Virus record (IMG/VR): IMGVR_UViG_3300025010_000071
Location: 1 to 56,495 of that record
Source of the DNA: a virus
Taxonomy: Duplodnaviria; Caudoviricetes
Length of the DNA: 56,495 bases
Direction: 5' to 3' (one strand)
In this document: piece after piece, positions 5,600 to 50,126 of the stretch
How positions within the stretch are numbered: the stretch's first letter is position 1
How the letters are laid out: the number at the start of each line of letters is the position of its first letter
Position numbers and translations under genes: made by a program
Notes under the pieces: model-generated
What the model was told of the DNA's origin: nothing
Database searches by the model: none
Seen by the model: only the letters and a program-made list of their open reading frames with translations

Positions 5600-7594
5600 A
5601 TGGAATTTAAAGAATTCAAAGTGGCGGTACAAGAACAGTTCAAGAGGATGCAGGGGGCCAATCTGTTTCGGGTAAATTTGGATAAAGATGTTCTTTGGAA
5701 AACATATCTGGAAAGTTTTCCTGAAGGAACAAACCCTATATTTCGTGAACGAACGGAACATGACTGCCAGTGTTGTAAAAGTTTCATTCGAGCAGTTGGT
5801 AATGTTGTTACTATTACCAATAACAAAATAGAAAGTATTTGGAATATCAATATTGGTGGGCATTATCAAATTGTTGCTGATGCAATGGCAAAATACGTTG
5901 AAAGTTTCCCAATTGATAATGTATTCCTTCATGCTGAAAAAACAGCTGGAACAGATAAAAACTATCAACAATTGGAGAACGGGGAAGTATTAGGATGGGA
6001 GCATTTCTTTATTGATGTTCCCAGCAAAAACTACTGTAAAGGAATTGATATTGGTACAAAGTTATCAGAATACCGAAGCACATTTGATGTAATGTATCGT
6101 GGACTTGAAGAAATAACGGTTGATTCTATTGAAACCGTTTTAGAACTCATCGCCCAGAATTCTCTGTATCGTGGGGAAGAACATTTACATTCCGTAAAAT
6201 CATTTCAGGCACTAAAAAATGAATTTGACAAATCGGATAGTAAAATTCTATTCTGTTGGAACAAGGTTTGGATTACCCCGACTGTTGCGAGAATTAGAAA
6301 TACTTCTATTGGTACTCTTCTGGTTGACATATCAGAAGGAATAGATTTAGAAAAAGCAGTCAAAGCGTTTGAGTCCAAAGTTGCCCCGCACAATTATAAA
6401 AGAACTTCCGCAGTTGTGTCAAAGTCAATGGTTGAAAGTGCAAAGAAAAAGTTGGAAGAACTCGGTCTGGTTGAAGCTCTTGAAAGACGACATGCAGTCA
6501 TTGAAGATATTTCCATAAACAATGTGCTGTTTGCTGATCGTGCTGCAAAGAAGAGAATGGATGTATTCGATGAGATTGCTGCAAAGACAACAAAGATTCC
6601 GAAGAAATTGGAACGTGTCGAATCAGTGGATATTGAGACATTCGTCAAAGAGATTCTTCCAAGAGCGGAATCGATTGAACTGATGTTTGAGAATAAGCAC
6701 ACTTCCAATCTGGTGAGTTTGATTGCTCCGGCAATGCAGGGAAAGAGCATGTTCAAATGGGATAACAACTTCTCATGGTCGTACAATGGCGAGGTTGCTG
6801 ATTCGATCAAAGAGCGGGTCAAGAAAGCCGGGGGCAATGTCGGGGGATATCTCAGATTCTCCCTGTCATGGTTCAATTTTGATGATCTTGACTTGCACAT
6901 GGTTGAGCCAAATGGATATGAAATTTTTTATGGGAACCGAGGATTTAATAGTCCTTGTCGGGGAACGCTTGACGTTGATATGAATGCCGGTTCGGGAACC
7001 ACCAGAACCCCTGTTGAAAATATCTGCTATTCCGATAGGAAGTATCTAAAGGATGGAACTTATCGACTGTTTGTACAACAATTCAGTCAAAGGGAATCGA
7101 AAGATGTTGGGTTTGAGGTTGAGTTTGAAGTTGAAGGCAGAATGGAGACACTAACTTATGACAAACCAGTAAAAGGTAATGTCCCTGTTCTTGAAATTAA
7201 GTATTCAAAAACGGATGGTATAAAGATCATCAAATCTCTTCCGTCCTCGCAGTCAACAAAGGAAGTTTGGGGAATCAATACACAGCAGTTCCATAAGGTC
7301 AATGCAGTTATGTTTTCCCCGAATTATTGGGATGAGAAGGCAACAGGAAACAAACATTACTTCTTCATGCTGGATGAGTGCAAGAACATGGATTCAGCAA
7401 GGGGTTTCTACAATGAGTTCCTGTCGTCAGAACTAGATGCCCATCGGAAAGTTTTTGAGATTCTTGGATCGAAGATGAAGGTTGAAAACTCAGAGAATCA
7501 ACTGAGTGGTCTTGGTTTCTCTTCAACCCAAAGGAATGAGGTTCTTTGTCGTGTAACTGGGAGTTTTTCCCGCACAATCAAAATCACTTTTTAA
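5600..7594 (+). CDS. large phage protein with YfaP/DUF2135-like C-terminal domain
   Basis: HDCQCC motif near N-terminus; LSWFNFDDLDLHMVEP...LDVDMNAG...PVENI motif. Confidence 0.7.
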   Translation: MEFKEFKVAVQEQFKRMQGANLFRVNLDKDVLWKTYLESFPEGTNPIFRERTEHDCQCCKSFIRAVGNVVTITNNKIESIWNINIGGHYQIVADAMAKYVESFPIDNVFLHAEKTAGTDKNYQQLENGEVLGWEHFFIDVPSKNYCKGIDIGTKLSEYRSTFDVMYRGLEEITVDSIETVLELIAQNSLYRGEEHLHSVKSFQALKNEFDKSDSKILFCWNKVWITPTVARIRNTSIGTLLVDISEGIDLEKAVKAFESKVAPHNYKRTSAVVSKSMVESAKKKLEELGLVEALERRHAVIEDISINNVLFADRAAKKRMDVFDEIAAKTTKIPKKLERVESVDIETFVKEILPRAESIELMFENKHTSNLVSLIAPAMQGKSMFKWDNNFSWSYNGEVADSIKERVKKAGGNVGGYLRFSLSWFNFDDLDLHMVEPNGYEIFYGNRGFNSPCRGTLDVDMNAGSGTTRTPVENICYSDRKYLKDGTYRLFVQQFSQRESKDVGFEVEFEVEGRMETLTYDKPVKGNVPVLEIKYSKTDGIKIIKSLPSSQSTKEVWGINTQQFHKVNAVMFSPNYWDEKATGNKHYFFMLDECKNMDSARGFYNEFLSSELDAHRKVFEILGSKMKVENSENQLSGLGFSSTQRNEVLCRVTGSFSRTIKITF

Positions 7595-12373: not shown

Positions 12374-12787
12374 ATGATGTACACAATACGGAAAGTGTTT
12401 AAGTTGGAAGGAGCCCACATACTGTCAAGGTCATTCTCCAAAGTCTGCCAAAGAATTCATGGCCACTCGTATCGTGTGGAAATATTTATTTCTACTGAAG
12501 AGTTGAATGCTGACGGTATGGTAGTTGATTTCAAGTTGATGAAAAATAACATTGGTTACATGATAGACTGTTGGGATCATAGATGTTTGGTATCAAGTGA
12601 TTCCTACAAAGGCATTGAGTTACTGGGAACATTCCACGACTCTTTTGTTGTTGTTCCGTTTAACCCTACTGCCGAGAATATGTGTAAAGATATTTACGAT
12701 CGGGTAAAAGAATGTGTTCCCAATGGTTTCACTTTAAAAGTAAGAATACATGAAACGGATACTGGCTATGCAGAATACTACGAATGA
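12374..12787 (+). CDS. queD: 6-carboxy-5,6,7,8-tetrahydropterin synthase
   Basis: AH..CQRIHGHSY, GMVVDF, WDH, PTAENM, HET motifs. Confidence 0.95.
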   Translation: MMYTIRKVFKLEGAHILSRSFSKVCQRIHGHSYRVEIFISTEELNADGMVVDFKLMKNNIGYMIDCWDHRCLVSSDSYKGIELLGTFHDSFVVVPFNPTAENMCKDIYDRVKECVPNGFTLKVRIHETDTGYAEYYE

Positions 12788-12980
12788 GTTAAATATAAAC
12801 TATGGCATTAACAAGGTTCAGAAAAAGGGATTTATTTACAGAAATGGTAAAATAAAAATAATGGGGGATTGGGATGATGACAATACCCATAAGGAAATAA
12901 GGAGAAAAATTAGAGAAGATAATCCAGGTTGGAACATTACAGGGTATTGTTTACCTAGTGGTGATGAAAATGGTGAATGA
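12750..12980 (+). CDS. hypothetical protein
   Basis: Fills the gap between queD and queE; start uncertain. Confidence 0.45.
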   Translation: MKRILAMQNTTNELNINYGINKVQKKGFIYRNGKIKIMGDWDDDNTHKEIRRKIREDNPGWNITGYCLPSGDENGE

Positions 12981-13815
12981 AAAAATAGGACACCATGCTA
13001 CTTACTGGGATGGTAAAAGTATGGTAGATTCCTGGAGTAATACATGGGAACATACTCTTCCAGAAATTAAACCATATCCATATATGCATATAAAAGATAA
13101 TCTATTTGGTATGCCGTGGTTAACCGGAGATGCAATTAAATTCAAAATGGATATTCAATTTATCCAGAGGAACATTATGCCAATCCTATTAAGGGAAGTT
13201 CAATACACATTTAGTGGTGAAGTGGGACACATAGTCCAAGGTTCTCCGATCCTTTTAATACGTACCCAGGGATGTAATATGGAATGTCCCTGGTGTGACG
13301 CTCAAGGTTCACAGGACTTTGAACATGGTCTGTCTGTAGATCACCGAGTACTAGCAGAGTTGATGTACAATTCAGCTTTTCCTATTCTGCTTACTGGTGG
13401 TGAACCACTGTTGCATTCCAAAGCTATTTTAGAAGCACTGTGTTTATTGGATAATATTTACAACGTCCGTAGAACGGTGCAAATTGAAACAAATGGTTCA
13501 ATAGCCATAGATCCAGAATTACTTACGTACGCCACATTTGTTGTTGATTATAAGTTCCAGTATCAGCATCAAATGAAACGGGAAAATTATGATCTGTTGA
13601 CTAACAAAGATTGGATCAAGTTATTAGTTACTGACCAAGATGATATTTTAAAATTAAAACAGTTTATTGAGGATTTTCCGATTGACACAAAAGCTAAATT
13701 GGCAGTGTCCTGTACTGACAACCAACTTTATAAGGAAGTCTGTGATTTGGTACTTGACAACAAATGGCCCATTATTGTAAACGTACAGATACATAAACTT
13801 TTAGGGATAGCATAG
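12958..13815 (+). CDS. queE: 7-carboxy-7-deazaguanine synthase (radical SAM); alternative start at 13177
   Basis: TFSGE, IRTQGCNMECPWCD, LLTGGEPLL, QIETNG, VQIHKLL motifs; GAGGA RBS before ATG 13177. Confidence 0.9.
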   Translation: MVMKMVNEKIGHHATYWDGKSMVDSWSNTWEHTLPEIKPYPYMHIKDNLFGMPWLTGDAIKFKMDIQFIQRNIMPILLREVQYTFSGEVGHIVQGSPILLIRTQGCNMECPWCDAQGSQDFEHGLSVDHRVLAELMYNSAFPILLTGGEPLLHSKAILEALCLLDNIYNVRRTVQIETNGSIAIDPELLTYATFVVDYKFQYQHQMKRENYDLLTNKDWIKLLVTDQDDILKLKQFIEDFPIDTKAKLAVSCTDNQLYKEVCDLVLDNKWPIIVNVQIHKLLGIA

Positions 13816-13828
13816 GAGGTGGTTCCCG

Positions 13829-13972
13829 TTGTCTGAAACTAAAACTTTAAAGTGTAAAAAATGTGGTTGGGAATGGGTTCCCAGAAAGGCAGATGTAAGG
13901 CAATGCCCGCATTGTAAAACAGCGTACTGGAATGTGGACAAGAAAGAAATACAACCAAAAAAGGAGAAGTAA
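13829..13972 (+). CDS. 47-aa zinc-ribbon protein (not in ORF track)
   Basis: AGGAGGT RBS, TTG start; CKKCGWEWVPR..CPHCK..W. Confidence 0.7.
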   Translation: MSETKTLKCKKCGWEWVPRKADVRQCPHCKTAYWNVDKKEIQPKKEK

Positions 13973-13973
13973 A

Positions 13974-14579
13974 ATGGGTGAAGTTAACGAGGTAAAGGAA
14001 GTCAATGCCGCCAATCTGAAGAAAGCAGTCAAAGAGTTGAACGACCTGGCAGTAGAAGGGGTTGCCAAAATCAGGACAGTTGGAATCAATGTCAATGATA
14101 TGGCTCTCCAGTTTATCAAAGCCTGTAATGCCGTGAATGACATTGATGAGAAACTTCTCACTGATTCAATGGTGGAAGTATATAATTCCCTTCCTGCCCC
14201 GGAAGAGTTGGCGGTAGCTCAGAAGGCACCGAAGGAGAAGAAAGCCAAGGAGCCCAAAGAGAAGAAGGTAAAAGCACCGAAAGAGCCCAAGGAAAAGAGA
14301 GAGCGTAAGGGGCCACATGATGGTGCAGCCCGCAGCCGTTACAATCATCTTCAGGGAGCAAAATCTGGTAAGCTTGATGATGAACTCTTTGCTGGTGGTA
14401 CGATGGAAGATATCATGGCCAAGTGTGAAGTTCCCATGCTCCGTGTAAAGGGACATGCAAAGCATCTGGTTAACGATCTTGGTCTGACCTTGACCATTAC
14501 CGAGAATAAGGAAGACCCGATGAAGTCCAAGTACAAGATCAAGGAAGAGAAGTGGTCTGCTGAAGCCGCAAAAGAGTAG
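13974..14579 (+). CDS. Lys/Glu-rich putative DNA-binding protein
   Basis: AAGGAG RBS; KAPKEKKAKEPKEKKVKAPKEPKEK linker and HTH-like C-terminus. Confidence 0.6.
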   Translation: MGEVNEVKEVNAANLKKAVKELNDLAVEGVAKIRTVGINVNDMALQFIKACNAVNDIDEKLLTDSMVEVYNSLPAPEELAVAQKAPKEKKAKEPKEKKVKAPKEPKEKRERKGPHDGAARSRYNHLQGAKSGKLDDELFAGGTMEDIMAKCEVPMLRVKGHAKHLVNDLGLTLTITENKEDPMKSKYKIKEEKWSAEAAKE

Positions 14580-14602
14580 CAGTAAATGAAGTCAGTCTGA
14601 TT

Positions 14603-14639
14603 ACAATGGAACCGGTACATTAGTTACCGGTTCCATTGT
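14603..14639 (+). terminator. 15-bp perfect hairpin, probable terminator
   Basis: ACAATGGAACCGGTA / TACCGGTTCCATTGT with short T run. Confidence 0.65.
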
Positions 14640-14663
14640 TTAAACTCTACCAAAGGAAAAGAA

Positions 14664-15266
14664 ATGATTTCTAAAGTAACATCAAAGGTTGATTACATTT
14701 TGCTGAAGAAAGCGGCAGAATTAATCATTGAAGCTATTGGTGAATCTCAATTAGACCCGAATTTTGCTGGTACTCCTGATCGATTTGCCAGGGCGTTTTC
14801 TTCTTTCTTCATGTTACCGGCAGAAATAGAACAACAGATGGAAGAAATTCTCAGTGTGTCCTTCCCAACAAAAGGGTACAGGGGAATGGTTTTCTGTACC
14901 GGAATTGAAGTAGTATCATGGTGCCCACATCATTTACTGCCAGTACTGTATGATATCACTATAGGGTATATTCCTTCAGAGAATGGTAAATTACTTGGTG
15001 CATCTAAACTTGCCAGACTTGCTGATATTCTCTGTAAAAGAGCGGTTCTGCAAGAAGACCTTACTAACCATATTGCTTCATCTATTGAAGGATTAACTGA
15101 AGCTGACGGTGTTGCAGTAGTGGTAAATGGTAGGCATGACTGTATGCGTATTCGTGGAATCAAACAGATGAATTCTGTATTCAAAACTTCGGAAATGCGG
15201 GGATCGTTCAAGACAAATCCAGAAACAAGGGAAGAGTTTTTCCACCTTATTGCAAATGGAGATTGA
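14664..15266 (+). CDS. folE: GTP cyclohydrolase I
   Basis: TPDRFARA, SWCPHHLLP, GASKLARL, LQEDLT, HDCMRIRG motifs. Confidence 0.95.
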   Translation: MISKVTSKVDYILLKKAAELIIEAIGESQLDPNFAGTPDRFARAFSSFFMLPAEIEQQMEEILSVSFPTKGYRGMVFCTGIEVVSWCPHHLLPVLYDITIGYIPSENGKLLGASKLARLADILCKRAVLQEDLTNHIASSIEGLTEADGVAVVVNGRHDCMRIRGIKQMNSVFKTSEMRGSFKTNPETREEFFHLIANGD

Positions 15267-15477
15267 AATGGTTAGGGTACCAGAAAATTCAGATAGTATT
15301 ACAGTAAGTGTTTATCTAAAAAATGGGGATTTCTTTGAAAGAAAAGACTGTACTATGGCCCCTACTGGGGAACACGAAACACTAATAAGTTTTTGGGAAG
15401 GGGATGATATAGTTGTTTTTCCGCTGGAGCAAGTTGACCGTTTTATATACCATTTTGATACTGTAAAAGGAGTTTAA
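15250..15477 (+). CDS. hypothetical protein
   Basis: Packed between folE and next gene. Confidence 0.55.
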   Translation: MQMEIEMVRVPENSDSITVSVYLKNGDFFERKDCTMAPTGEHETLISFWEGDDIVVFPLEQVDRFIYHFDTVKGV

Positions 15478-15479
15478 CC

Positions 15480-15944
15480 ATGACTGATCAAGTAATTGAA
15501 TTAGGGGATACTGTCAAAGATAGGATTACTGGTTATACTGGTGTAGTTACTACCATTAATTCTTATCTGTATTCTTCCCCACGAATTGGGGTACGATCTA
15601 AAGAACTTCATAATGGTATTCCTGTTATGGAGCAGTCTTTTGATGAAGTAGAATTGGAAATAGTTGAGAAACAAACCATTAAAATGCTGATTACAGATAA
15701 ACCAGATATTTCTTTTATGGATTTGGTAGAAGACACCGTTACAGGTTTCAAAGGAAAGGTTGTTGGTATTGCCAAATTTCTGACAGGTTGTTTTCGTATA
15801 GGGGTCCAAAGCGAAGCAATGAAAGATGGTTCCCCTGTTAACTGGCAGTGGTTTCCTGATCCACAAATTAAGGTATTACAGAAAAAGGAACAAGAGCCAG
15901 TTAAGCGTCTTGGTGGTCCTATGCCTACTTGTAACAGGGGGTAA
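15480..15944 (+). CDS. protein with two tandem SH3-like repeats
   Basis: LGDTVKDRITGYTGVV..RIGV and FMDLVEDTVTGFKGKV..RIGV. Confidence 0.7.
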   Translation: MTDQVIELGDTVKDRITGYTGVVTTINSYLYSSPRIGVRSKELHNGIPVMEQSFDEVELEIVEKQTIKMLITDKPDISFMDLVEDTVTGFKGKVVGIAKFLTGCFRIGVQSEAMKDGSPVNWQWFPDPQIKVLQKKEQEPVKRLGGPMPTCNRG

Positions 15945-15947
15945 AAT

Positions 15948-16316
15948 ATGGTAGATATAAAACGGAATACCCATATTGTCATAAAGAGGGATGACGTTAC
16001 CAAGTATCTTTCTGAGGAAGAAAGAGATACGTTGGATAAAATAGTTTACGAGATAAAAGTACGTAGAGTGGCTAATCTCATACCACCACATAATGAGTAT
16101 ATTGTCTGCAACTGGAACGAACCATACGCCCAGAAAGTGTTAGATGTTATACTGGAAGGAGAGGAATTAAAAAGTGGTACAATTTTTATTGATGTAGAAA
16201 AAGAAGCTTGGGAATCAATTAAACAGGCAGTAGCTGAATCTCCTTGGATACCTGAAGACTATTATATGAATGATTGGGTAGCCGATATTCGTTCTTTTCT
16301 TCTTAAAAAGGATTGA
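15948..16316 (+). CDS. hypothetical protein
   Basis: HIVIKRDD..YIVCNWNEPYA.KV pattern typical of phage accessory ORFs. Confidence 0.6.
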   Translation: MVDIKRNTHIVIKRDDVTKYLSEEERDTLDKIVYEIKVRRVANLIPPHNEYIVCNWNEPYAQKVLDVILEGEELKSGTIFIDVEKEAWESIKQAVAESPWIPEDYYMNDWVADIRSFLLKKD

Positions 16317-17311
16317 TGCAAATGAACTTGGTGAAAGCCGAAATACTGTTCAGCAGAAAATGTAACCTTGCTTGTAAGCATTGTTCTATGGTAACTGGAC
16401 AAAGTAACTCCCTGACCATTGAGGAATGGAAAAAGGGGTTTGATAACTTGAAAGAATTGGGATGTTCTTTCGGTGCTTTCTACGGAGCAGAACCGTTACT
16501 TGAGTTCAACAAACTGAAAGTAGTTTTGCCCTACGCTGAATCTATTGGTATCCATACTACGGTAATTACTTCTGGTACACGTATTCCAGATTTTCATAAC
16601 AAGTTGAAAGAACTGCATAAGGCTGGTGGTAAAAGCCTGTCCATGTCGTATGATATACTGGCATACGATATGAGTTCCGCAAAGAAAAGAGATGCTGCTT
16701 TAAAGTCTTTGAAGTACTGGAAGACATTTCCCGATATACGGGATGCAGCGGCTATAACCACTTTGACAGCAAAGAACTTTCACCTGTTACCTGCAATGGT
16801 TCAACATATGAGTGATCTTGGTATATGGACATTCTACGATATGATTCATGAAGATCGTGGACAGCCCGGATCAAAGTGTAGGGGTAAGGCTGGTAATCTA
16901 ATGTTTCAGCCTGAGCAATTAGGCAAACTGTTTGAAGTACTGGAACTGGTTAATGATATGAGTAAGAATGGATTCCTTGTCCATAACTCTGATAACTTTG
17001 TGAAAATGCTTCAGTATATGTATGGTAATTCCCCTGATATTTATAGTTGGTGCTGTGCATGTGGCGGTACTGTATTTCCATCATGGTTGACAATTGACTG
17101 TGACGGTACCGTTTTACCGTGTGACGATTTCCATGTTACCAGAGAGTTCAAATTTCATCATGATTTAGATACTTGGTGGCCTAAGTGTATCCTTGTATTC
17201 AGAGAACAGATACAGAAGAATGATTGCCATTGTTGCTGGAACACACATATTGATGCCCACTTTATTAAAGCAGGGCATGGTAAACTTTCCGATTACATTC
17301 ATGGGGTGTAA
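16313..17311 (+). CDS. radical SAM enzyme with Cys-rich SPASM/twitch-like C-terminus
   Basis: CNLACKHC, GAEPLL, C-terminal IDCDGTVLPCDD and CHCCW. Confidence 0.9.
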   Translation: MMQMNLVKAEILFSRKCNLACKHCSMVTGQSNSLTIEEWKKGFDNLKELGCSFGAFYGAEPLLEFNKLKVVLPYAESIGIHTTVITSGTRIPDFHNKLKELHKAGGKSLSMSYDILAYDMSSAKKRDAALKSLKYWKTFPDIRDAAAITTLTAKNFHLLPAMVQHMSDLGIWTFYDMIHEDRGQPGSKCRGKAGNLMFQPEQLGKLFEVLELVNDMSKNGFLVHNSDNFVKMLQYMYGNSPDIYSWCCACGGTVFPSWLTIDCDGTVLPCDDFHVTREFKFHHDLDTWWPKCILVFREQIQKNDCHCCWNTHIDAHFIKAGHGKLSDYIHGV

Positions 17312-17312
17312 T

Positions 17313-17519
17313 ATGTATGAAGACTGGGATGATGATGCAGTTACAGAACAGTGGAATATACCAGAGGCAACCGATAAACATGAAACTGTATCAATAACCA
17401 CTGATGGTAAAAATTGGAGATTAGCAATCTCCTGTGATATGGGTTACGAATGGACTAATGCCGATTTATCCGTTATTATAAAATGGATTAAGGAAAATAA
17501 ACCGGAGCTATTGCTATGA
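17313..17519 (+). CDS. hypothetical protein
   Basis: ATG just after radical SAM stop; ATGA overlap with queC. Confidence 0.55.
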   Translation: MYEDWDDDAVTEQWNIPEATDKHETVSITTDGKNWRLAISCDMGYEWTNADLSVIIKWIKENKPELLL

Positions 17520-18274
17520 GGGAAGAAGATCAGAGTAATATTGAATGGGGAATGGCAGATATACAAGACCAGTACAGTAAATCACGGGTCTTATGTATTT
17601 CTGGTGGAGTTGACTCCGTTATTGCTTGGTATTACCTGAACAAACCCACAGCAGTGTACTTCAATACAGGTGTTCCTTATGCTGCAAAAGAGAAGAGAGC
17701 TTTAATGAATCTGGGAATACCATTCATTGAGGATAACTCCCTGAAATTTCCAGAGACCAGTATCTACATTCCCCATAGAAACTTGCTGTTTGCTTCAAGG
17801 GCTTCTCAGTACGGGGACACCGTATATATGGCAGGACTGAAAGATGATATGGTAGAAGACAAGAATGAAATGGCCTTTGCTGTAATGTCTGATTGCCTTA
17901 CTGCTATTGGTAAGAAACCAGTACAGGTGCTTTCCCCTTTCTGGGGTATGATGAAGGAAGATATTATCCGATGGTTTCTGGCTGATAATGGACATGCCGA
18001 ATACATTCTGAAATGTACCTGTTCTTGTTATTCTGATATTGGTAAGGAGTGCATGGCATGTGAAGCATGTTTCCGAAAGAACTGTGCCTTATTTGCTAAT
18101 GGTATAAAACGTCCATTTGAATTCAATAAACTGATATCGTATTATACCAATAGGGCATTGGAAGGGGTTTACGTTTCAGAAAGAAACGAAAGTATTCTTA
18201 ATTATGTGGAGTGGCTGAATGGACAGAGAAAAACTGTACAACACACCGAGAGACAAGAAGGTTTTCTTCTTTGA
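17516..18274 (+). CDS. queC: 7-cyano-7-deazaguanine (preQ0) synthase
   Basis: SGGVDS PP-loop, IPHRNLLF, CSCY..CMACEAC zinc site. Confidence 0.88.
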   Translation: MREEDQSNIEWGMADIQDQYSKSRVLCISGGVDSVIAWYYLNKPTAVYFNTGVPYAAKEKRALMNLGIPFIEDNSLKFPETSIYIPHRNLLFASRASQYGDTVYMAGLKDDMVEDKNEMAFAVMSDCLTAIGKKPVQVLSPFWGMMKEDIIRWFLADNGHAEYILKCTCSCYSDIGKECMACEACFRKNCALFANGIKRPFEFNKLISYYTNRALEGVYVSERNESILNYVEWLNGQRKTVQHTERQEGFLL

Positions 18275-18545
18275 CATTGATGGTACTATTACTGTTGAAA
18301 CTGAAGGGTGGGATTATCTGAAGAGAACCCCACGATTGGAAGTTATCGACAAGATAAACACCCTTTATGATTCTGGAGTAGTTCATGTAGTGTTTTGGAC
18401 TTCCCGTTTATCTATTGACAGGAGAAAAACAGAATTTTGGCTGGAGGCTCATGCAGTAAAGTACCATGAATTAAAGTTTGGTAAACCATTCTTTGACTTG
18501 TATATCTGCGACAAGGCAATAAACATTGAACAGTGGGAGAAATAA
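18219..18545 (+). CDS. small HAD-superfamily phosphatase
   Basis: FDIDGT motif I, WTSR, GKP..D..ICDK motifs. Confidence 0.85.
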   Translation: MDREKLYNTPRDKKVFFFDIDGTITVETEGWDYLKRTPRLEVIDKINTLYDSGVVHVVFWTSRLSIDRRKTEFWLEAHAVKYHELKFGKPFFDLYICDKAINIEQWEK

Positions 18546-19148
18546 ATGGATACAGTACATGCTGATGGTAAATGTCCTCTTAAATTAAACTTTGGTTGTG
18601 GTTCTGATATAAAGGAAGGGTGGTGTAATGTTGATGCACACATAGACCAGGATTTCGACTATTCTCATTTAAAAGATACCTGGATACTGGAAGGGAAAAT
18701 TGTTTCACCACATGCTCTGCCCAGTAATCACTTTGAGAGTATAGATGCGATTATGGTTATGGAACATTTACACTATGATCTTATTCCAAATACATTATTT
18801 TGCCTGTATCGCTTTCTTAAAGATAATGGCACCCTGAAGATTATTGTTCCAAACTTTTTGAAATTAGCGAAAGATTTAATACAGAATGAAGCAGTACCCA
18901 AAGGTAGTTTAGAATATGTGGATAATATCCGTAATATAAATAATGAGTTTCTTGATCCTACATTTGAGGATATGGGATTCATTCGTGGGCACCAGTCAAT
19001 ATGGACACCGAGACTTGCTGAAAGGTGGTTACGAAATGAGGGATATAGGGTTCATTCGTGGGCACCATTTGGCGTGGAAGATTATCATTTGAAAATAATT
19101 GCAATTAAACCTGAAGGGAATCCTTATGGTAGCCCAAATAAAGACTAA
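18546..19148 (+). CDS. class I SAM-dependent methyltransferase
   Basis: LNFGCG, NVD, VMEH, LKDNGTLKIIVP motifs. Confidence 0.85.
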   Translation: MDTVHADGKCPLKLNFGCGSDIKEGWCNVDAHIDQDFDYSHLKDTWILEGKIVSPHALPSNHFESIDAIMVMEHLHYDLIPNTLFCLYRFLKDNGTLKIIVPNFLKLAKDLIQNEAVPKGSLEYVDNIRNINNEFLDPTFEDMGFIRGHQSIWTPRLAERWLRNEGYRVHSWAPFGVEDYHLKIIAIKPEGNPYGSPNKD

Positions 19149-20004
19149 CTTCATCCTAGATTCGGGCGCATTTTCGGCCGACCAGAAAGGCACTGAAGTA
19201 GATGTTTACAAGTACATGGATTTTATCCGTGAGAACAAAGTAGAACTCTATTTCAACCTTGATGTTATCGGTAGTGCTGAAGGTTCCTGGAAGAATCAGG
19301 AGATAATGGAGAAGAGCGGGTTTAGTCCCTTGCCAGTATTTCATGTTGAAGACGAAGAAAGATACTTAGACAGGTGCATAAGCGATTACCGATACTTTGC
19401 ATTAGGCGGAATGGCAGGGGGAGTATCAGAGCAGTCAAGGGAAAGATTTCTTGACAGATGCTGGGAAAAGATTTGCCCTGCCCCAACATATATGCCTGTC
19501 AGTAAGGTTCATGGGTTAGGACTTGCAAGTCCATTATTAATTACCAAATACCCTTGGGCGAGTTGTGACACAGCCAGTGGTATACATTACGGTAGATATG
19601 GGATAATAATTATTCCTCGAATGAAACATGGTGGGAAACCAGATTACCTGTCACCACCTTATTCAATCTATATAACGGAAAGGTCTACTACTGTACAAGT
19701 TGAAGGAAAGCATATACGGAATGTGGCACCATCTGTCAGAAAATGGATATATGAATACATTGTTTCCAGAGGGTTTGCTGTAGGCAAGATTGATCTTGTT
19801 CCAGTTCTGAAAGGGTATGAGTTACAGGAAGGGGAAAAGTTTACTGGCAAGGAGAAGGTTTTGATTGAGCGGGTAATTGAACCTGGGGTTGTATCTAATG
19901 GGACTATCCGGGATTACTTTAACTTAGATTTTTACCTACAGATGGAGAAGGCTATACCTGAATGGCCTTGGTCGTATAAACCGAAAATGAAAAGGATGTT
20001 TTAA
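19126..20004 (+). CDS. dpdA: TGT-fold DNA deazaguanine transglycosylase (DpdA-like)
   Basis: LDSGAFS, NLDVIG, PVFH, ALGG, VHGLG, SCDTAS motifs; context of folE/queD/queE/queC. Confidence 0.72.
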   Translation: MVAQIKTNFILDSGAFSADQKGTEVDVYKYMDFIRENKVELYFNLDVIGSAEGSWKNQEIMEKSGFSPLPVFHVEDEERYLDRCISDYRYFALGGMAGGVSEQSRERFLDRCWEKICPAPTYMPVSKVHGLGLASPLLITKYPWASCDTASGIHYGRYGIIIIPRMKHGGKPDYLSPPYSIYITERSTTVQVEGKHIRNVAPSVRKWIYEYIVSRGFAVGKIDLVPVLKGYELQEGEKFTGKEKVLIERVIEPGVVSNGTIRDYFNLDFYLQMEKAIPEWPWSYKPKMKRMF

Positions 20005-20014
20005 AGGAGAAATT

Positions 20015-20386
20015 ATGTCAGCCGATCTTATAGAAGTGTACAAAGCCGTACAAGAGATAAATGAAAGTATGTTTGGCTGTTTTGTAGAACCTCCAGTAGA
20101 AGCAAAGGATTTTGATGATTGGTCTAATGCCATTACTTACAGTAAACTTTACCTTCTTACTGATGGGGAAACTATCTCAATAAGTTTTCTGGATATCCCT
20201 ATATGGGATACTGATATGGATGAACGGGAATATGATGATGAAAAGGATGACTGGGAACCATTAGTTCTGTTTCTCAAAAGGAAAATAACTGGAATACTTT
20301 CTAATATTGTAAGGATAAAATTCAATGACAATACTTCTGATAGTGGTAGTAGTGCTAGTGGTACAGATACTTCTGTTAAAGCTTAA
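20015..20386 (+). CDS. hypothetical acidic protein
   Basis: AAGGAG RBS. Confidence 0.6.
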   Translation: MSADLIEVYKAVQEINESMFGCFVEPPVEAKDFDDWSNAITYSKLYLLTDGETISISFLDIPIWDTDMDEREYDDEKDDWEPLVLFLKRKITGILSNIVRIKFNDNTSDSGSSASGTDTSVKA

Positions 20387-20407
20387 CGGTTACAAAGGAG
20401 GGGAGTT

Positions 20408-20650
20408 TTGATTCTTTACCTCGCGGGAGGATTCCACTTTAGCAATACTGTAGAGTCCGAGAAAAAACTAGCGGAACAGATGATTTCCTTATATAATCGA
20501 TACAATAGACTTGCAACTTTCTATTACGAGAAAGATGCACGGAACATAATAACTGTCATGGAGGAATTAAATGGAGACAAAGGAATTGGTACGGATAGTC
20601 AATCTTCTCATGGTTGCAGTAGAGAGGAAAGCAGTAGTATCCCAGTATGA
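20408..20650 (+). CDS. small protein resembling the N-terminal module of DpdA-like proteins
   Basis: GGAGGG RBS, TTG start; MILYLAGG...NRLATFYY. Confidence 0.5.
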   Translation: MILYLAGGFHFSNTVESEKKLAEQMISLYNRYNRLATFYYEKDARNIITVMEELNGDKGIGTDSQSSHGCSREESSSIPV

Positions 20651-22735: not shown

Positions 22736-23266
22736 ATGATTACCCAAGCAGAGTTAAAAGAAATACTTCACTATGATCCAGGTACTGGGATATTTACGTG
22801 GAAGACAGATGGTCGTGGCCGTGGCCATAAAATTGGCAATGTTGCGGGAACTTGTACCGAATATGGTTATATTCGTATAGGAATATATGGAAGATACTAT
22901 ATGGCTCATTGTCTTGCTATACTTTATACGGATGGTTATTTATCAGAATATACAGTGGATCATATTGATAGAGTAAGAGATAACAATAGGAGAAATAATT
23001 TACGGGAGGCCTCTCATCAATGCCAAATGAGAAATAGTGGTATAAATAAAAATAATTTTAGCGGTATAAAAGGAGTTACATGGAACAAAACATATAATAA
23101 ATGGCAAGCACAGGTAATGGTTAATGGAATGTGTAAATACCTTGGTCTATTTACAGATTTTCTGGAAGCCTGTTATCACCGATTCGCGGCTGAACAGTGT
23201 CTGGGTTTCCAGGACTGTGATATAAATTCATCTGCAAAACAGTATATTGATGGGAAGTTAGGGTAA
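22736..23266 (+). mobile_element. free-standing HNH homing endonuclease with AP2 domain
   Basis: LHYDPGTGIFTW, VDHIDRVRDNNRRNNLR, SGIKGVTW..KW.A..YLGLF; next to DNA polymerase. Confidence 0.88.
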
Positions 23267-39941: not shown

Positions 39942-40117
39942 TGGCAAATATTCAAGTGATACGGGCATTCAAAAGGAATGGTATTACTAAAGTATATAAC
40001 TATACTGGTGATCCTATTTCTACAGGTCCCATCTATCCACTGAAACAAATAGTGGTTGGTCCTACTCTGATTAGAGTAGTGGACGATCCACCTGATAAGA
40101 ATAAACCTAAATCATAA
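39941..40117 (+). CDS. small hypothetical protein, last gene of the plus-strand arm
   Basis: TAATG overlap; its end overlaps the ferredoxin stop on the opposite strand. Confidence 0.45.
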   Translation: MANIQVIRAFKRNGITKVYNYTGDPISTGPIYPLKQIVVGPTLIRVVDDPPDKNKPKS

Positions 40118-40318
40118 TGGTGAAAAAGAAATAGCTCTGGTAGGGCAGGAATCAACTACCAGAGCTATTCCGGCTTTAACGTCTTCTCGTTCTAATGCCC
40201 AATCAGAAACGTCAATCCTTCCTTCATAGACTGTTTTGAATCTCGGTAAAATCTTTTCACAGGAACCACAGTCTTCGCATTTACTTTTATCCAGTTTCAG
40301 AACGTGCTTGTAATGCAA
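40112..40318 (-). CDS. ferredoxin (single 4Fe-4S/3Fe-4S cluster type)
   Basis: DKSKCEDCGSCE...SCPTRAI; AGGAG RBS before TTG. Confidence 0.85.
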   Translation of the reverse strand: MHYKHVLKLDKSKCEDCGSCEKILPRFKTVYEGRIDVSDWALEREDVKAGIALVVDSCPTRAISFSPL

Positions 40319-40330
40319 AATAGTTCTCCT

Positions 40331-40846
40331 TCAATCGGTGTCTTCCGCACCATACAGTAGATTATTGGCTATTCGATCAGCCCAGCCTCTGGAATTATCA
40401 TGCCAGTTATCAAGATCTTTCAGAAACTTTAGTCTACCAGCCGTCAGTCTCATTACCAGATCACTATCTGTAAAGCTAAGAATTTTTGCTCTGGTGTATG
40501 GCCCTATTACCCCATCAGGTTCAACCTTCTCTCCACCAATTACTATATTCATTTGACGCTGCAATTCTTTTACTGCTCTACGGATACCACTATGTACACC
40601 AAAATCAATCAACTGGAAAGTGATACCGTCAGGAAGTTGTCTTGAAGATATAGGAGCAATAAAATCCCGCTCGTATATTACTGCGGCATCTTCAAGGGAA
40701 AGGTTTTTGATATCTAGGTGAGGATAGGACCTTTTCGATATACCCCACTTAGTTTCTCCCCCTGGATCGGCTTTAGGGGATCGATTGGAATACCCCCCTT
40801 CATGACCATTAATACGGACAAGCCATTTCTTAATCTTTTCTCGCAT
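40331..40846 (-). CDS. endolysin, glycoside hydrolase family 108
   Basis: HEGGY..DPGGETKWGIS, DGVIGP.T, GW..R motifs. Confidence 0.93.
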   Translation of the reverse strand: MREKIKKWLVRINGHEGGYSNRSPKADPGGETKWGISKRSYPHLDIKNLSLEDAAVIYERDFIAPISSRQLPDGITFQLIDFGVHSGIRRAVKELQRQMNIVIGGEKVEPDGVIGPYTRAKILSFTDSDLVMRLTAGRLKFLKDLDNWHDNSRGWADRIANNLLYGAEDTD

Positions 40847-40847
40847 C

Positions 40848-41414
40848 TCAGTTCCTTATCCCTCTTGCATATTCCCGCGAAAATTTTAGTGCGGCATTCA
40901 CTTTTTCTTTATCGTATGATAGTTTGTACCTGTCGCAGATAAAAATGAATTTAGCTATATATTCCGCATGAAATGAGATATTAGGAGGTAACCATTTATC
41001 TGGGCTACTATCACCTTTACCACTATGAACAGTTCTATTTACTGCCAGAAGATTATCTACATCATTGGCAAATTCTTCTCTTTCTGCATTTGTCCAGTTT
41101 TCAGCACCATGTTCCCAAGCATACTTCAACGGTACAACATGATCAATATCCAAATAACTGGCTGAATGGAATATTTTACCAGAATATGGACAAACCCATA
41201 TTCCAAGTTTAATATCATTCCCCACAATGGAAATAAGGTAATTACCGTTAGCAGTCTGAACAGACTGTTTTATCAATACATCTTCACGGGTATTAAATCC
41301 ATTTCCATCTAAATCAGACCAGTGTTTAAAGTGCTTACTTCTGTTATACTGTTCTGTATATGAAAAACTTGGAAACAGAAATATTACCAAGATACAAATT
41401 ATTACTTTATTCAT
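40848..41414 (-). CDS. secreted HNH nuclease (DUF1524-like) with signal peptide
   Basis: ATGA-coupled start MNKVIICILVIFLFPSFSYT; YNR..F.HW.D.D, CPYSG, DIDHVVPL..AW..GA, FAND..NLLAV, K.D..P..WLPP. Confidence 0.85.
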   Translation of the reverse strand: MNKVIICILVIFLFPSFSYTEQYNRSKHFKHWSDLDGNGFNTREDVLIKQSVQTANGNYLISIVGNDIKLGIWVCPYSGKIFHSASYLDIDHVVPLKYAWEHGAENWTNAEREEFANDVDNLLAVNRTVHSGKGDSSPDKWLPPNISFHAEYIAKFIFICDRYKLSYDKEKVNAALKFSREYARGIRN

Positions 41415-41893
41415 GGAACTATTACCTCGGCAGACTTCAATAATGGTTGGATCCACTCTAAAACTTTTACTGCTGCAACTGACGCCACAGCCAAATAAAT
41501 CAGAATCCTTTGCCAATTTGTTTTTTTCCAATCCTCTAAAGTAACCACTCTAGCTACTAATAAACCGTACTCTGTTTTAAACAAAGCAAGTTCTACTTTA
41601 TCAACTTTACCCTGTTCGACCTCTTTTAAGCGGGAGTAAATCTCACCACGGCGAAGTTCACATTTAGTGGAACAACTGGTATTTGTTTTCTCTATTCTTT
41701 GCAATTCGGTGTCAATGGAAATTTGCCTTGCTGTTGTAGTGGAATTCACTAAATCCCGTAGAGCTTCCAGTTTCTCCTTAATGGAAACCATCACCCGTTT
41801 CTCAGCCTTCTCTATGGATTCCTCCACTCTGCCTTCAAGCCTTTCCATAGTCTCGTAGACTGACCTCCGTCTTTCTTCAGGGGAATCTTCCAT
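41411..41893 (-). CDS. coiled-coil protein with C-terminal TM helix (lysis-associated)
   Basis: GGAG RBS; heptads then ILIYLAVASVAAV. Confidence 0.6.
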   Translation of the reverse strand: MEDSPEERRRSVYETMERLEGRVEESIEKAEKRVMVSIKEKLEALRDLVNSTTTARQISIDTELQRIEKTNTSCSTKCELRRGEIYSRLKEVEQGKVDKVELALFKTEYGLLVARVVTLEDWKKTNWQRILIYLAVASVAAVKVLEWIQPLLKSAEVIVP

Positions 41894-41897
41894 GAAA

Positions 41898-42362
41898 TCA
41901 CTTCTCCAAAAGTTCGTTAAAATTCTTCCGTTTAATCAAAAGGTCTAGCCATATTGGAAGTTTTCCTTCTATCTCATTCAAATGGTTTTTAGATAGGGTG
42001 CCATCAGCACCAGCACTTAACGATTGCCCAACAAAAGTTACACCAGATTTCTTAGATGATATTAAGAACAGTATTTCTGGTCGCACTCTCTTTGCTACCC
42101 CACAAAGGAAAACCCCTGTGGGGCGTAAATCTTCATCGGTTAAATCAGCAATGACTAAATCTATATTTGGATCTTGTTCAATTATAACCATTGCCTCTTT
42201 ATAGTCATGAACACATATAATAGTTTCTACTCCCAAAGATCGTAAAGAGGTACAGGTTTTTTCCAATTCATTATCGTTCTGTTCGACTACCATAATTATT
42301 AGATTTTTAACGGTACACATTGGCGTATTCTCCATTGGAAAACTGGTTGCATTACTTTTCAA
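41898..42362 (-). CDS. stand-alone CheY-like receiver domain protein
   Basis: IMVVE, EAM..I..DPNIDLVIAD, G..L, PEI.FLISS, SLSAGADG.LSK. Confidence 0.8.
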   Translation of the reverse strand: MKSNATSFPMENTPMCTVKNLIIMVVEQNDNELEKTCTSLRSLGVETIICVHDYKEAMVIIEQDPNIDLVIADLTDEDLRPTGVFLCGVAKRVRPEILFLISSKKSGVTFVGQSLSAGADGTLSKNHLNEIEGKLPIWLDLLIKRKNFNELLEK

Positions 42363-42612
42363 TCTGATCGGTTACCTCAACTTCTGGTTTTTTAAATACA
42401 CCAGTAAGATTGGCAAGTTTAACCATAGCACCAACGAAGACTTCAATAGCGGGCCATACTGAATCAATTTCTTTAAAGATTACACTGAGACTTTCCCTGA
42501 TGGCAGCAATCTTCTCCTTCCCCCAACCAGAAGCAGGAATAAACTCTTCGATCTTTTGTACTGCTTCAATAATAGCCGGCACCATCTGCAAAAACATTAA
42601 TATGTATTTCAT
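42352..42612 (-). CDS. small holin-region protein
   Basis: GGAGG RBS; amphipathic, G.GKEK motif. Confidence 0.55.
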   Translation of the reverse strand: MKYILMFLQMVPAIIEAVQKIEEFIPASGWGKEKIAAIRESLSVIFKEIDSVWPAIEVFVGAMVKLANLTGVFKKPEVEVTDQIEK

Positions 42613-42941
42613 TTCGGTTCCTCCACTATAGGACCAATCTTTAGGCCATCCGCCCCTTTCAGTTTTCTCGTAGTGACAATTGTCAGAACGATGTTTACAG
42701 CATTTAAAATACCAGCAAGTGATCCAGAAACAATAATTATCACTTCATCATTTACTGGCAATTTAACATCAATCGCCTCCAACCCAAGAACAATTGCAGT
42801 TAGAATAAGAGCAATTTGGTTCGCAGTAATGGCAACATTCTTCCAGCCTGCTGGGTCCGAAACCTGTTGCCCTGCCTCCAACGCTTCCTTGAATTGCCCT
42901 ACATTTTTTATCAGTGAGATCCATCTCATAGTATGCTTCAT
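42609..42941 (-). CDS. putative holin (two TM segments)
   Basis: IALILTAIVLGL and IIIVSGSLAGILNAVNIVLTIV; basic C-terminus; lysis context. Confidence 0.6.
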   Translation of the reverse strand: MKHTMRWISLIKNVGQFKEALEAGQQVSDPAGWKNVAITANQIALILTAIVLGLEAIDVKLPVNDEVIIIVSGSLAGILNAVNIVLTIVTTRKLKGADGLKIGPIVEEPK

Positions 42942-43035
42942 CTCCTATAATTAGCCTGATATAATCATTACTGGTCATCGTTCTGGGAGTACATGAGGAC
43001 AGGATTAGCAGAATAGTTACGGCCACCCACTTCAT
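42769..43035 (-). CDS. putative lipoprotein overlapping the holin gene
   Basis: MKWVAVTILLILSSC lipobox; ATGA-coupled to upstream gene. Confidence 0.4.
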   Translation of the reverse strand: MKWVAVTILLILSSCTPRTMTSNDYIRLIIGDEAYYEMDLTDKKCRAIQGSVGGRATGFGPSRLEECCHYCEPNCSYSNCNCSWVGGD

Positions 43036-43406
43036 TCTCTATCCCTCGGCCGTTCCGGTAGACCCTCGCAGAATTTGCACTCTGGGTCGAGACACTTAAA
43101 TTGCTTCCATCCGTCGCATATTGGGCAAAGCCACGTTTCCCATTTTTCAGAATACTTCAGCGGCAAGCCACAGTAGGCACATTTCTTATCCTTCTTTTGG
43201 AATAACTGCTTTATCCACTTCACTAACTTCTTCGCATTCACTTTTATTACAATTATCTTCTCTTTCGGTGGTGGGCCATAAGCGTCTTCGGTCAGCATCC
43301 CCATTTCCTCCAATACACCAATCACTCCCATCGCCTGTGACCAATACGGAAGCCTGTGGTGATCTTCGAGATATTTTGCCACTGGGTGATTTTGTATGCC
43401 GTTCAT
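43032..43406 (-). CDS. hypothetical protein with C-terminal zinc ribbon
   Basis: GAGGA RBS before ATG 43406; CAYCG, CPICD, CLDPECKFC. Confidence 0.55.
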   Translation of the reverse strand: MNGIQNHPVAKYLEDHHRLPYWSQAMGVIGVLEEMGMLTEDAYGPPPKEKIIVIKVNAKKLVKWIKQLFQKKDKKCAYCGLPLKYSEKWETWLCPICDGWKQFKCLDPECKFCEGLPERPRDRE

Positions 43407-43490
43407 GAGTTTCCTCATTAGGATAATTACAGACTGGGCATTTAGACCCACCAACGTATAAGTGCTGGCAGGTTTTACAGATAGGAGCCA

Positions 43491-44165
43491 TTAGTTATCG
43501 GTTACTATAACAGGGGTGTCAACTACTTCTACACCAGGATCGGTTACGGGGAAATCAGTAGAACCACTTGCAGGGGTAGAAGTTGCTTGGCCTTCCTCAC
43601 CAGTATTAGTGGAGGTAGCATGAGTTTCACTGGTAGTTTTGTTATTGGTAGTATTAGCATCGCCACCTTCAGTGTTGTTGGTAGTTTTATTCCCTGCACT
43701 AGACCCAATAGCTTCAATAGCTTTCACTGCCCCAACAGCAATAGTGGCTGTAGTAGCTACATCGGCACCACGATTTATAGCGGTTCTAACTGTGGCCCCC
43801 TGTTCTTTTAATTCTGTTCCCATAAATGCCCAGAGATTATCAGGATTATGGCATGGGTTTGAATCTTTACCAGTAGCAGATGCTACGAGTCTAGCAGTTT
43901 GTGCCTGTAATTTCACTACCATGCAGTCTCGGCTATCCATCCCGGTACAATCTACTTTCAAGGATTCCCCATAAGCTTGCATACATCTTTCTTCAGCAAT
44001 AGCCTGTTGTCTTGCAATGTTGGCCAAAGAAGATTCAGATGTACTGACAGTGCCATCTTTGTAAGAGGTTGTGGTTGTGGTACCAAGAAGTTTGGCTGTT
44101 TTAGATCCACACCCAACCAGCAGAACTGACAACGAGATTAACAGTACAGCACCAATTCTTTTCAT
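43491..44165 (-). CDS. lipoprotein with Thr-rich tail
   Basis: MKRIGAVLLISLSVLLVGC lipobox. Confidence 0.75.
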   Translation of the reverse strand: MKRIGAVLLISLSVLLVGCGSKTAKLLGTTTTTSYKDGTVSTSESSLANIARQQAIAEERCMQAYGESLKVDCTGMDSRDCMVVKLQAQTARLVASATGKDSNPCHNPDNLWAFMGTELKEQGATVRTAINRGADVATTATIAVGAVKAIEAIGSSAGNKTTNNTEGGDANTTNNKTTSETHATSTNTGEEGQATSTPASGSTDFPVTDPGVEVVDTPVIVTDN

Positions 44166-44168
44166 AAC

Positions 44169-44609: not shown

Positions 44610-44619
44610 CTCGATCCCC

Positions 44620-45356: not shown

Positions 45357-45357
45357 C

Positions 45358-46219: not shown

Positions 46220-46249
46220 TTAATGATTTGTGCACGCATCCTTTACATT

Positions 46250-49166: not shown

Positions 49167-49167
49167 A

Positions 49168-49803: not shown

Positions 49804-49808
49804 AACTG

Positions 49809-50078: not shown

Positions 50079-50126
50079 AAATTGGATAAGAATATCATTA
50101 CTTGGAGCATACTACAAAAATTTATA

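Follow-up and report, generated by a model that had tools for sequence, protein, structure and literature searches.

A viral 7-deazaguanine DNA-modification cluster with a divergent QueC paralogue and its phosphatase partner: a possible route to a further tailored base

The IMG/VR virus record IMGVR_UViG_3300025010_000071 (Duplodnaviria; Caudoviricetes), which comes from an uncultured phage, was analysed over its entire length, a linear sequence of 56,495 bases with an estimated completeness of 60%, which is referred to here as the window. Between positions 12374 and 20004 its plus strand carries genes for QueD, QueE, FolE, a second radical S-adenosylmethionine (SAM) enzyme (rSAM2), a QueC-family protein, a small phosphatase of the haloacid dehalogenase (HAD) type, a methyltransferase and DpdA (Table 1). 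Together, FolE, QueD and QueE convert GTP to 7-carboxy-7-deazaguanine (CDG), and DpdA exchanges guanine in DNA for a deazaguanine base after replication. An earlier note on this DNA had named all of these genes, and each of them was found on the plus strand; its reading of FolE-QueD-QueE with DpdA as a deazaguanine DNA-modification cluster was upheld by family models and by DpdA homology. The note had let the cluster run to 20650. However, DpdA stops at 20004, and the interval 20015-20650 holds two small open reading frames (ORFs) without a family match. We found that the gene which had been taken for queC encodes a divergent QueC paralogue, itself an unusual part of the cluster, and that the HAD gene is its constant partner.

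The PF06508 match of the QueC-like protein covers the C-terminal half only, and the score of 38.6 bits against the curated equivalog model TIGR00364 lies far below the cut-off of 150.3. In a search with a profile of 29 relatives the solved QueC proteins ranked first (3bl5, 1.7e-12; 2pg3, 1.7e-11), followed by Cap9 (2.4e-9) and QatC (1e-3). The canonical signature of the QueC family, including the motifs YxQxHxxE and YPDC, was defined in a 2026 study, where it is also reported that preQ0 formation by E. coli QueC depends on Tyr35, Arg99, Tyr131 and Tyr189 (PMC13329287). We aligned 74 QueC-like proteins with 13 Gat-QueC domains, all taken from the collected loci. Four signature positions are each kept in 73 of the 74 QueC-like proteins, namely the Ser of the P-loop, the first-motif Glu, the PxRN Arg and the YPDC Asp. 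Among 29 sequences the residues S29, G30, G31, D33, S34, R88 and N89 are invariant, as are the Cys residues of the Zn site (C171, C179, C182 and C185). The protein thus shares with canonical QueC the SGGxDS loop, the VPxRN Arg and the Zn motif C..CxxCxxC, in which the first Cys is followed by an aromatic residue.

Of the canonical YxQxHxxE motif only the Glu is conserved (73/74 QueC-like proteins), the Gln being present in 3/74. The column equivalent to Tyr35 holds Tyr in 3/74 (Leu is commonest, with 42), compared with 9/13 Gat-QueC domains. The column equivalent to Tyr131 holds Tyr in none of the 74 (Val in 41, Trp in one), compared with 13/13 Gat-QueC domains. In a maximum-likelihood tree from a quick search with 86 rows, a single branch (SH-aLRT 99) parts 12 Gat-QueC domains from the 74 QueC-like rows. 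Membership in the QueC family therefore stands, while the name of a canonical QueC does not, both Tyr residues being absent and the equivalog score low.

To place the cluster among related viruses we used two scans of IMG/VR, which share contigs and are not independent samples. The first scan, with rSAM2 as query and genes called by tblastn at 1e-5, gave 47 loci, with rSAM2 in 46, the QueC-like gene in 45, FolE in 44, DpdA in 42, HAD in 38, QueE in 36, QueD in 34 and a methyltransferase of the window type in 3. In the two loci without the QueC-like gene the contig ends right after the rSAM2 match. The second scan, with the QueC-like protein as query, gave 71 loci, and a hidden Markov model census found the QueC-like gene in 66 of them. 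HAD is present in 63, DpdA in 58 and FolE in 55 of these 66 loci. A strong rSAM2 (at least 240 bits) was found in 34 and a cut rSAM2 fragment in 2, and a weaker radical SAM protein, which shows the same CX3CX2C and C-terminal Cys layout when aligned, occurs in a further 10. In most loci rSAM2 directly adjoins the QueC-like gene. Gene order varies between the lineages, whose genomes measure between about 90 kb and 183 kb.

The earlier note had grouped rSAM2, HAD and the methyltransferase as one set of extra enzymes and had made their association with dpdA elsewhere a test of the proposal. Such an association was seen for rSAM2 and HAD (DpdA in 42/47 and 58/66 loci of the two scans), whereas any of four class I methyltransferase groups is found in only 15/66. 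As a set the three did not hold together: HAD is constant, and rSAM2 (34/66) and the methyltransferase vary between lineages. The constant core consists of HAD, the QueC-like protein and DpdA on the CDG pathway, while rSAM2 and the methyltransferases are frequent yet exchangeable additions.

A canonical Gat-QueC shares its cluster with the QueC-like gene in 5/47 loci of the first scan and in 9/66 of the second, which are 14 distinct contigs. It has been shown that Gat-QueC together with DpdA leads to dG+ even when E. coli lacks queC (Hutinet et al. 2019, PMC6884629). Since Gat-QueC alone suffices there, the QueC-like protein would not be needed as a QueC in these 14 contigs.

The HAD protein has 108 amino acids and a DxDG motif. 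Its matches to curated families are low: TIGR01689 was hit at 1.9e-7, under the cut-off of that model, and TIGR01662 with 23.6 bits against a cut-off of 44.6. Nevertheless, the superfamily motifs I-IV (DxD, Ser/Thr, Lys and acidic pair) are all present. Among 22 sequences D19, D21, R63 and K89 are invariant and D98 is nearly so, and the S/T-R63 motif is present. The nearest solved relatives are 9iqw, a 'capsule biosynthesis protein' of 134 amino acids (6.4e-7), and 1xpj (1.1e-5), and the best matches among GenBank phages are GmhB-like genes in heptose clusters of cyanophages (38-43% identity). These features point to a small, capless phosphatase of the sugar-phosphate or polynucleotide type. 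The HAD and QueC-like genes overlap by 56 nucleotides (18219-18274) in different frames, and in 11 loci the two are fused in frame; in a single fusion ORF, Pfam reports both QueC and HAD_PNKP. A search for longer forms with the QueC-like protein itself found no fusion.

The TGT-fold protein (tRNA-guanine transglycosylase fold) is identified as DpdA by its sequence relatives. Its tblastn search matched 176 GenBank phage records at 24-41% identity, including the 'DpdA' of Pseudomonas phage Iggy (30.8% identity, 3e-24) and the '7-deazaguanosine inserting enzyme' of Seuratvirus and Nonagvirus phages. The residues D21, D55 and D157, which we take to be the catalytic Asp residues of the TGT family, are invariant in 29 sequences and lie in the motifs DSGAF, LD and S-x-D. 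Against 7ui4, a solved bacterial DNA-guanine transglycosylase, the DpdA profile gave a weak match (4.3e-3) in which the Asp motifs align. Translation probably starts at the ATG at 19126. In relatives, the Pfam model PF01702 (TGT) gave no match, but it is too insensitive and misses DpdA even where the gene is present; the missing PF01702 match in the contigs L040 and L041 (152-183 kb) is uninformative for the same reason.

In the closest relative (L001:13100-14920) DpdA is a 606-aa ORF, to which residues 17-153 and 155-301 of the window protein match at 96% identity. The insert of about 318 amino acids begins with Cys, ends with Asn followed by Ser, and is located exactly in the invariant S-x-D motif; by these features it is intein-like. 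Inteins are typical of genes that are indispensable to a phage. An HNH ORF (L001:12564-13103) lies immediately upstream of this gene.

The second radical SAM enzyme carries the CX3CX2C motif (C17/C21/C24) and four further Cys residues in its C-terminal domain (C248, C263, C270 and C307), all of which are invariant in 26 aligned homologues. The earlier note had described a Cys-rich domain for an auxiliary cluster. The Cys residues are compatible with such a domain. The Pfam SPASM model does not match the window protein, and a JGI source names one homologue a SPASM protein. Four Cys residues fit better with a single, fully ligated auxiliary cluster in a predicted twitch-like domain than with a full SPASM domain. 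The best NCBIfam matches are SPASM/twitch enzymes, with NirJ first (1.1e-12, 47.6 bits against a cut-off of 515) and PqqE, AhbD and BlsE scoring lower, and rSAM2 reaches the curated score of none of the named radical SAM families considered (NirJ, AhbD, PqqE, BlsE, viperin and MoaA). By sequence, its best solved relatives are SuiB (4.6e-8) and viperin-like enzymes (about 1e-7), and an atlas search returned generic radical SAM clusters only.

The rSAM2 family is large and yet almost restricted to viruses. A word-indexed search gave 192 homologues, and when 1.84 billion proteins were searched in full with a profile, 110 representative clusters were found at E<=1e-30. In contrast, only 2 marginal records were found in GenBank phages, and among 185,579 species genomes only 4 contigs of metagenome-assembled genomes, which have phage-like content. 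No functional fusion appeared in a search for longer forms. Two long homologues, P0160 (752 aa) and P0201 (579 aa), contain Intein_splicing/HINT domains; the inserts map close to profile position 265, next to the conserved Cys motif of the C-terminal part. The likeness to AhbD, NirJ and BlsE, weak as it is, had suggested rSAM2 as a CDG decarboxylase. We set this idea aside because CDG has no sp3 C-H beside its carboxyl group, which by our reasoning the usual radical decarboxylation route needs, and because the QueC-like protein would be left without a substrate.

The methyltransferase gene begins with the base directly after the HAD stop codon. Its nearest atlas clusters are Methyltransf_11/23/25 and mainly viral, its GxG, acidic and EH motifs are conserved, and no sequence relative was found in the PDB. 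On this sequence evidence it is a Rossmann class I enzyme and a variable accessory gene, not related to DpdM; it matches class I models only, and scans of the cluster ORFs gave no match to DUF3109, the family of DpdM. In addition to the tblastn count given above, another census counted the window's type of methyltransferase in 8 loci of the first scan.

Other lineages place different enzymes in the same slot, namely a short-chain dehydrogenase (SDR), an S-adenosylmethionine decarboxylase-family protein (AdoMet_dc), members of the four methyltransferase groups or a second type of radical SAM protein with the same Cys architecture. In one lineage (L109:4607-11597 and L123) the row consists of FolE, HAD, a class I methyltransferase, a radical SAM protein and a 185-aa ORF without a family match, followed by an AdoMet_dc protein (PF02675), Gat-QueC, the QueC-like gene and DpdA. 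This composition hints at a side chain of an aminopropyl or decarboxylated-amine type. In another (L116:5830-11433, L118 and L120) FolE is followed by a short-chain dehydrogenase, a distant rSAM2-like protein, Gat-QueC, HAD, the QueC-like gene and DpdA; the rSAM2-like protein is missing in L120.

The precursor genes are recognised with varying strength. FolE passes the cut-off of its NCBIfam model, QueD comes close to that of TIGR03367 (84.3 bits, cut-off 89.25), and the QueE-like protein, which has an N-terminal extension of about 80 amino acids, matches TIGR03963 (9.9e-26) with 90.8 bits, under the cut-off of 260. QueD is not a DpdL-type paralogue, because it retains the CxxxHGH motif. The conserved, Lys/Glu-rich protein of 215 amino acids between queE and folE matched no Pfam, PHROG or NCBIfam family; its BLAST cluster covers 29 loci of the first scan, and it is an uncertain candidate for a member of the pathway.

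Table 1. Genes of the cluster and other features of the window, with their positions, strand and best matches.
Feature	Position	Strand	Match or characteristic
QueD (6-carboxytetrahydropterin synthase)	12374-12787	+	PF01242 1.2e-26; phrog_2389 4.6e-24; CxxxHGH in translation
QueE-like radical SAM (7-carboxy-7-deazaguanine synthase)	12958-13815	+	phrog_2076 7.3e-25; Fer4_12 and Radical_SAM
Basic 215-aa protein, Lys/Glu-rich	13932-14579	+	pI 9.4
FolE (GTP cyclohydrolase I)	14664-15266	+	PF01227 3.9e-48; NF006826 165.2 bits (cut-off 162)
rSAM2, radical SAM with Cys-bearing C-terminal (twitch/SPASM-like) domain	16313-17311	+	PF04055 6.2e-12
QueC-like PP-loop/Zn protein	17516-18274	+	PF06508 48.2 bits (threshold 22), profile positions 89-206 only
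Small capless HAD-type phosphatase (predicted), 108 aa	18219-18545	+	phrog_1238 1.5e-17; DxDG motif
Class I SAM-dependent methyltransferase	18546-19148	+	Methyltransf_23 1.5e-5, under gathering score
DpdA (DNA guanine transglycosylase, phage 9g/CAjan/Iggy kind)	19099-20004	+	phrog_887 1.3e-41
664-aa protein, hypothetical	5600-7594	+	phrog_1735 1.5e-281; no Pfam family
Free-standing HNH endonuclease with AP2-like domain	22736-23266	+	
Large ORF	46250-47470		no informative PHROG match
Large ORF	47619-49166		no informative PHROG match
Tail protein	51218-53287		

The cluster is enclosed in a replication module that fills the plus-strand half of the window. Helicase, primase, the 664-aa phrog_1735 protein and a DnaB-like helicase precede it, and a sliding clamp, an HNH endonuclease, DNA polymerase, clamp loader, a gp32-like protein, a UvsX-like recombinase and a ligase follow, which places it between helicase and clamp/polymerase genes. 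No near relative of the window was found by megablast among 50,697 GenBank phage records, the cluster itself gave zero megablast matches to GenBank phages, and the DNA polymerase shares only about 24% identity with polymerases of cultured phages. No tRNA gene was found in the window, and a scan for promoters and terminators gave no more sites than in shuffled sequence. Family searches of the cluster turned up neither a phosphoribosyltransferase nor a CD-NTase or a QatA/QatD-type neighbour.

Several features of the window lie apart from the cluster. The 664-aa protein, annotated as hypothetical only, has matches in 552 GenBank phage records and shows 53% identity to proteins of phiCbK-like Caulobacter phages. 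The HNH endonuclease gene is flanked by a phrog_4400 gene and the gene for DNA polymerase. At about 40 kb both the coding strand and the GC skew switch (40000-56495). The GC content rises to 0.48-0.53 at 46-50 kb, compared with about 0.38 elsewhere in the window.

Searches with family models gave zero matches to QueF, the ArcS core and GATase_7 in the window, in agreement with the earlier note, which had recognised none of them and had asked about the rest of the genome. In four relatives that are rated 100% complete (about 90 kb), no ArcS was found, no QueF match reached the cut-off, and the QueC family is represented by exactly one gene per genome. Weak QueF matches in these genomes land on FolE, owing to the fold common to both.

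Overall, our data suggest, with a probability of roughly 0.55, that the deazaguanine inserted by DpdA is tailored beyond, or instead of, preQ0 and that the modified DNA differs from one carrying plain dPreQ0. The phage system would swap guanine in its own DNA for a 7-deazaguanine. The canonical QueC step would be replaced or supplemented by the QueC paralogue, which may activate (adenylate) the carboxylate of CDG with ATP, as QueC, Cap9 and QatC do. Its altered substrate pocket suggests that CDG is joined to a nucleophile other than ammonia, or that a product other than preQ0 is released. HAD might strip a phosphate from the co-substrate or the adduct, or pull the ATP-dependent step forward. 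Moreover, rSAM2 and the class I methyltransferase could tailor the side chain, either while the base is still free or after its insertion into DNA. They would act as exchangeable modules, in whose place sister lineages carry SDRs, AdoMet-decarboxylase-family proteins, other methyltransferases or Gat-QueC. The resulting derivative may protect the phage DNA against host nucleases.

More tentatively, and rather below even odds, the cluster may stand for an undescribed family of 7-deazaguanine bases in a large and nearly wholly uncultured group of phages. In such a ligation route the QueC paralogue would couple the carboxyl group of CDG to a phosphorylated co-substrate of the amine or sugar type and not to ammonia, and the fused or adjacent HAD would then take off the phosphate. 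Interchangeable tailoring enzymes, a twitch-type radical SAM protein and a methyltransferase in the window and an SDR or an AdoMet-decarboxylase-family protein in sister lineages, would lead to lineage-specific side chains before DpdA writes the finished base into DNA. The QueC-like/HAD pair could thus be a new entry point to deazaguanine hypermodification.

Several observations weigh against a tailored base. The methyltransferase is found in a minority of the loci (15/66), and rSAM2 is not obligatory, as 20/66 loci lack a radical SAM protein of its kind; about 6 of these 20 have less than 3 kb of upstream sequence, and 5 of 5 contigs that were fully checked are fragments. There are also minimal clusters, such as QueD-QueE-x-FolE-HAD-QueC-like-DpdA, with neither rSAM2 nor a methyltransferase. 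The co-occurrence itself is partly inherited, because most loci come from related, syntenic viruses which share the replication module. The reaction type of rSAM2 is a guess, since no named family matches at curated cut-offs. Finally, the QueC-like protein may be the preQ0 or ADG (the amide of CDG) synthase of its lineage with a different pocket, because it is the only QueC homologue there.

The last point leads to the explanation that competes best, although we consider it less likely. Here the divergent QueC would make preQ0 or stop at the amide ADG, and DpdA would insert a known base. HAD would remove pyrophosphate or a by-product, while rSAM2 and the methyltransferase would have some other function or act on a minor fraction. 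The single QueC-family gene of the four complete relatives and the minimal clusters are what one would expect from such a pathway, and so are the ranking of true QueC proteins as the best solved relatives and the retained ATP loop, PxRN Arg, YPDC Asp and Zn site. However, the equivalents of the essential Tyr35 and Tyr131 are missing, and 14 contigs pair the QueC-like gene with Gat-QueC, which already supplies the QueC function. That rSAM2 and the QueC-like gene are immediate neighbours in most loci also speaks against an ordinary product. In addition, at 1e-5 the QueC-like protein matched 20 GenBank phage records, which include neither the well-known QueC-carrying phages nor canonical phage QueC genes.

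A very improbable alternative is that the QueC-like protein modifies a phage or host protein by adding CDG at its N-terminus, for instance in counter-defence, with the TGT-fold protein acting on this adduct like Cap10. QueC-family enzymes are known to have such an activity (PMC13329287), the QueC-like profile does match Cap9 and QatC, and the altered pocket would be compatible with a bulkier nucleophile. On the other hand, the homologues of the TGT-fold protein are DpdA proteins of phages, including that of Iggy, whose DNA is reported to carry dPreQ0 (PMC10484667). The location of the cluster between helicase and clamp/polymerase genes and the failure of the family searches to turn up CD-NTase or QatA/QatD-type neighbours argue in the same direction.

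Even less probable is a role in a queuosine- or archaeosine-like tRNA modification or in a free deazapurine metabolite: the FolE-QueD-QueE-QueC genes are common to tRNA pathways, and the toyocamycin-type nucleoside pathway includes a HAD phosphatase, but the window is without a tRNA gene, QueF and ArcS, no phosphoribosyltransferase was seen in the cluster, the relatives have no PF01702 match (a model that misses their DpdA as well), and the homology to DpdA indicates DNA as the target.

Each new member of the eight 7-deazaguanine bases known from DNA has brought new enzymes and a new interplay with restriction or other defence systems. With the cluster described here come a QueC paralogue that has a constant phosphatase partner and a virus-restricted radical SAM family, which stand beside DpdA in dozens of viral contigs. 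If the product of the tailoring is new, it would extend natural DNA chemistry, contribute a ligation route that is built on the QueC scaffold and driven by ATP, and provide tools for making nuclease-resistant DNA.

Compared with the phage clusters for dPreQ0 and dG+ (CAjan, Rosebush, 9g and Iggy), which are described as FolE-QueD-QueE with QueC or Gat-QueC and DpdA (PMC6884629, PMC10484667), the precursor genes of the window are alike and its DpdA is homologous (29-35% identity, 1e-24 to 1e-32). The expected role, escape from restriction, is the same. In contrast, the window lineage has no canonical QueC and carries instead the paralogue with the changed pocket and the small HAD, and the window adds a second radical SAM protein and a class I methyltransferase. 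Apart from the two marginal matches, rSAM2 is absent from the cultured phages of the GenBank set.

It has previously been shown that DpdL, DpdM and DpdN, which are encoded beside dpdA, diversify the base to dDG, mdPreQ1 and fdPreQ1 (Cui et al. 2023, PMC10516641). The idea that extra enzymes adjoining dpdA tailor the base is common to both systems, but the enzymes differ. DpdM is a DUF3109 metal protein (CxxxCxxCC) that acts on preQ1, whereas the methyltransferase of the window is of the Rossmann class I and there is no QueF to provide preQ1. DpdL, a CDG decarboxylase, is a QueD paralogue with the motif LxxxHRHxF (PMC10516641), and the sole QueD-family gene of the window has CxxxHGH. A formyltransferase of the DpdN type did not turn up in family scans of the cluster ORFs.

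Radical SAM enzymes are also found in deazaguanine pathways of other kinds. In the archaeosine pathway RaSEA operates in complex with its partner ArcS (PMC11298593), and the queuine lyase QueL is a radical SAM enzyme that acts on the deazaguanine side chain (PMC11570991). By their described roles they resemble what we propose for rSAM2, a two-step logic in which a radical SAM enzyme adds or removes a group at the 7-side chain. The partner differs, being ArcS for RaSEA and a QueC-family enzyme for rSAM2.

Cap9 and QatC are QueC-family ligases which are reported to ligate CDG not to ammonia but to another amine, at protein N-termini (PMC13329287). They have the PP-loop and Zn scaffold in common with the QueC-like protein. 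However, they are bacterial anti-phage defence proteins found in the context of a CD-NTase or of QatABD, and not with the CDG pathway and DpdA as in the window, and Cap9 retains the YxQ and YxDC motifs, both of which the QueC-like family lacks. In the literature that we searched, supplementary tables not included, neither the pair of a QueC paralogue and HAD nor the rSAM2 family is described beside dpdA.

The closest cultured counterparts are Stenotrophomonas phages of the genus Menderavirus (e.g. vB_SmaM_Ps15) and Bacteroides phage BS162P1, in which a relative of the QueC-like gene, with an identity of only 25-29%, stands beside TGT/DpdA and QueE genes. Our literature search found no report on the DNA chemistry of these phages. 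In Ps15 (L053, NC_070951: 83412-88938) the row consists of FolE, a protein of the Inos-1-P_synth family, a 123-aa ORF, the QueC-like gene, TGT and QueE, which the genome paper reads as queuosine genes. The 123-aa ORF, annotated as a polynucleotide kinase, lies directly upstream of the QueC-like gene, and the inositol-1-phosphate-synthase family gene takes the position that rSAM2 has in the window. A cyclitol side chain, as this neighbour might suggest, is kept as a mere lead, because no such gene occurs in the collected loci and because BLAST found no match between the small ORF and TGT of Ps15 and the HAD and DpdA of the window. Nevertheless, since these distant cultured carriers of the QueC-like and DpdA pair exist, the question of the base is directly testable.

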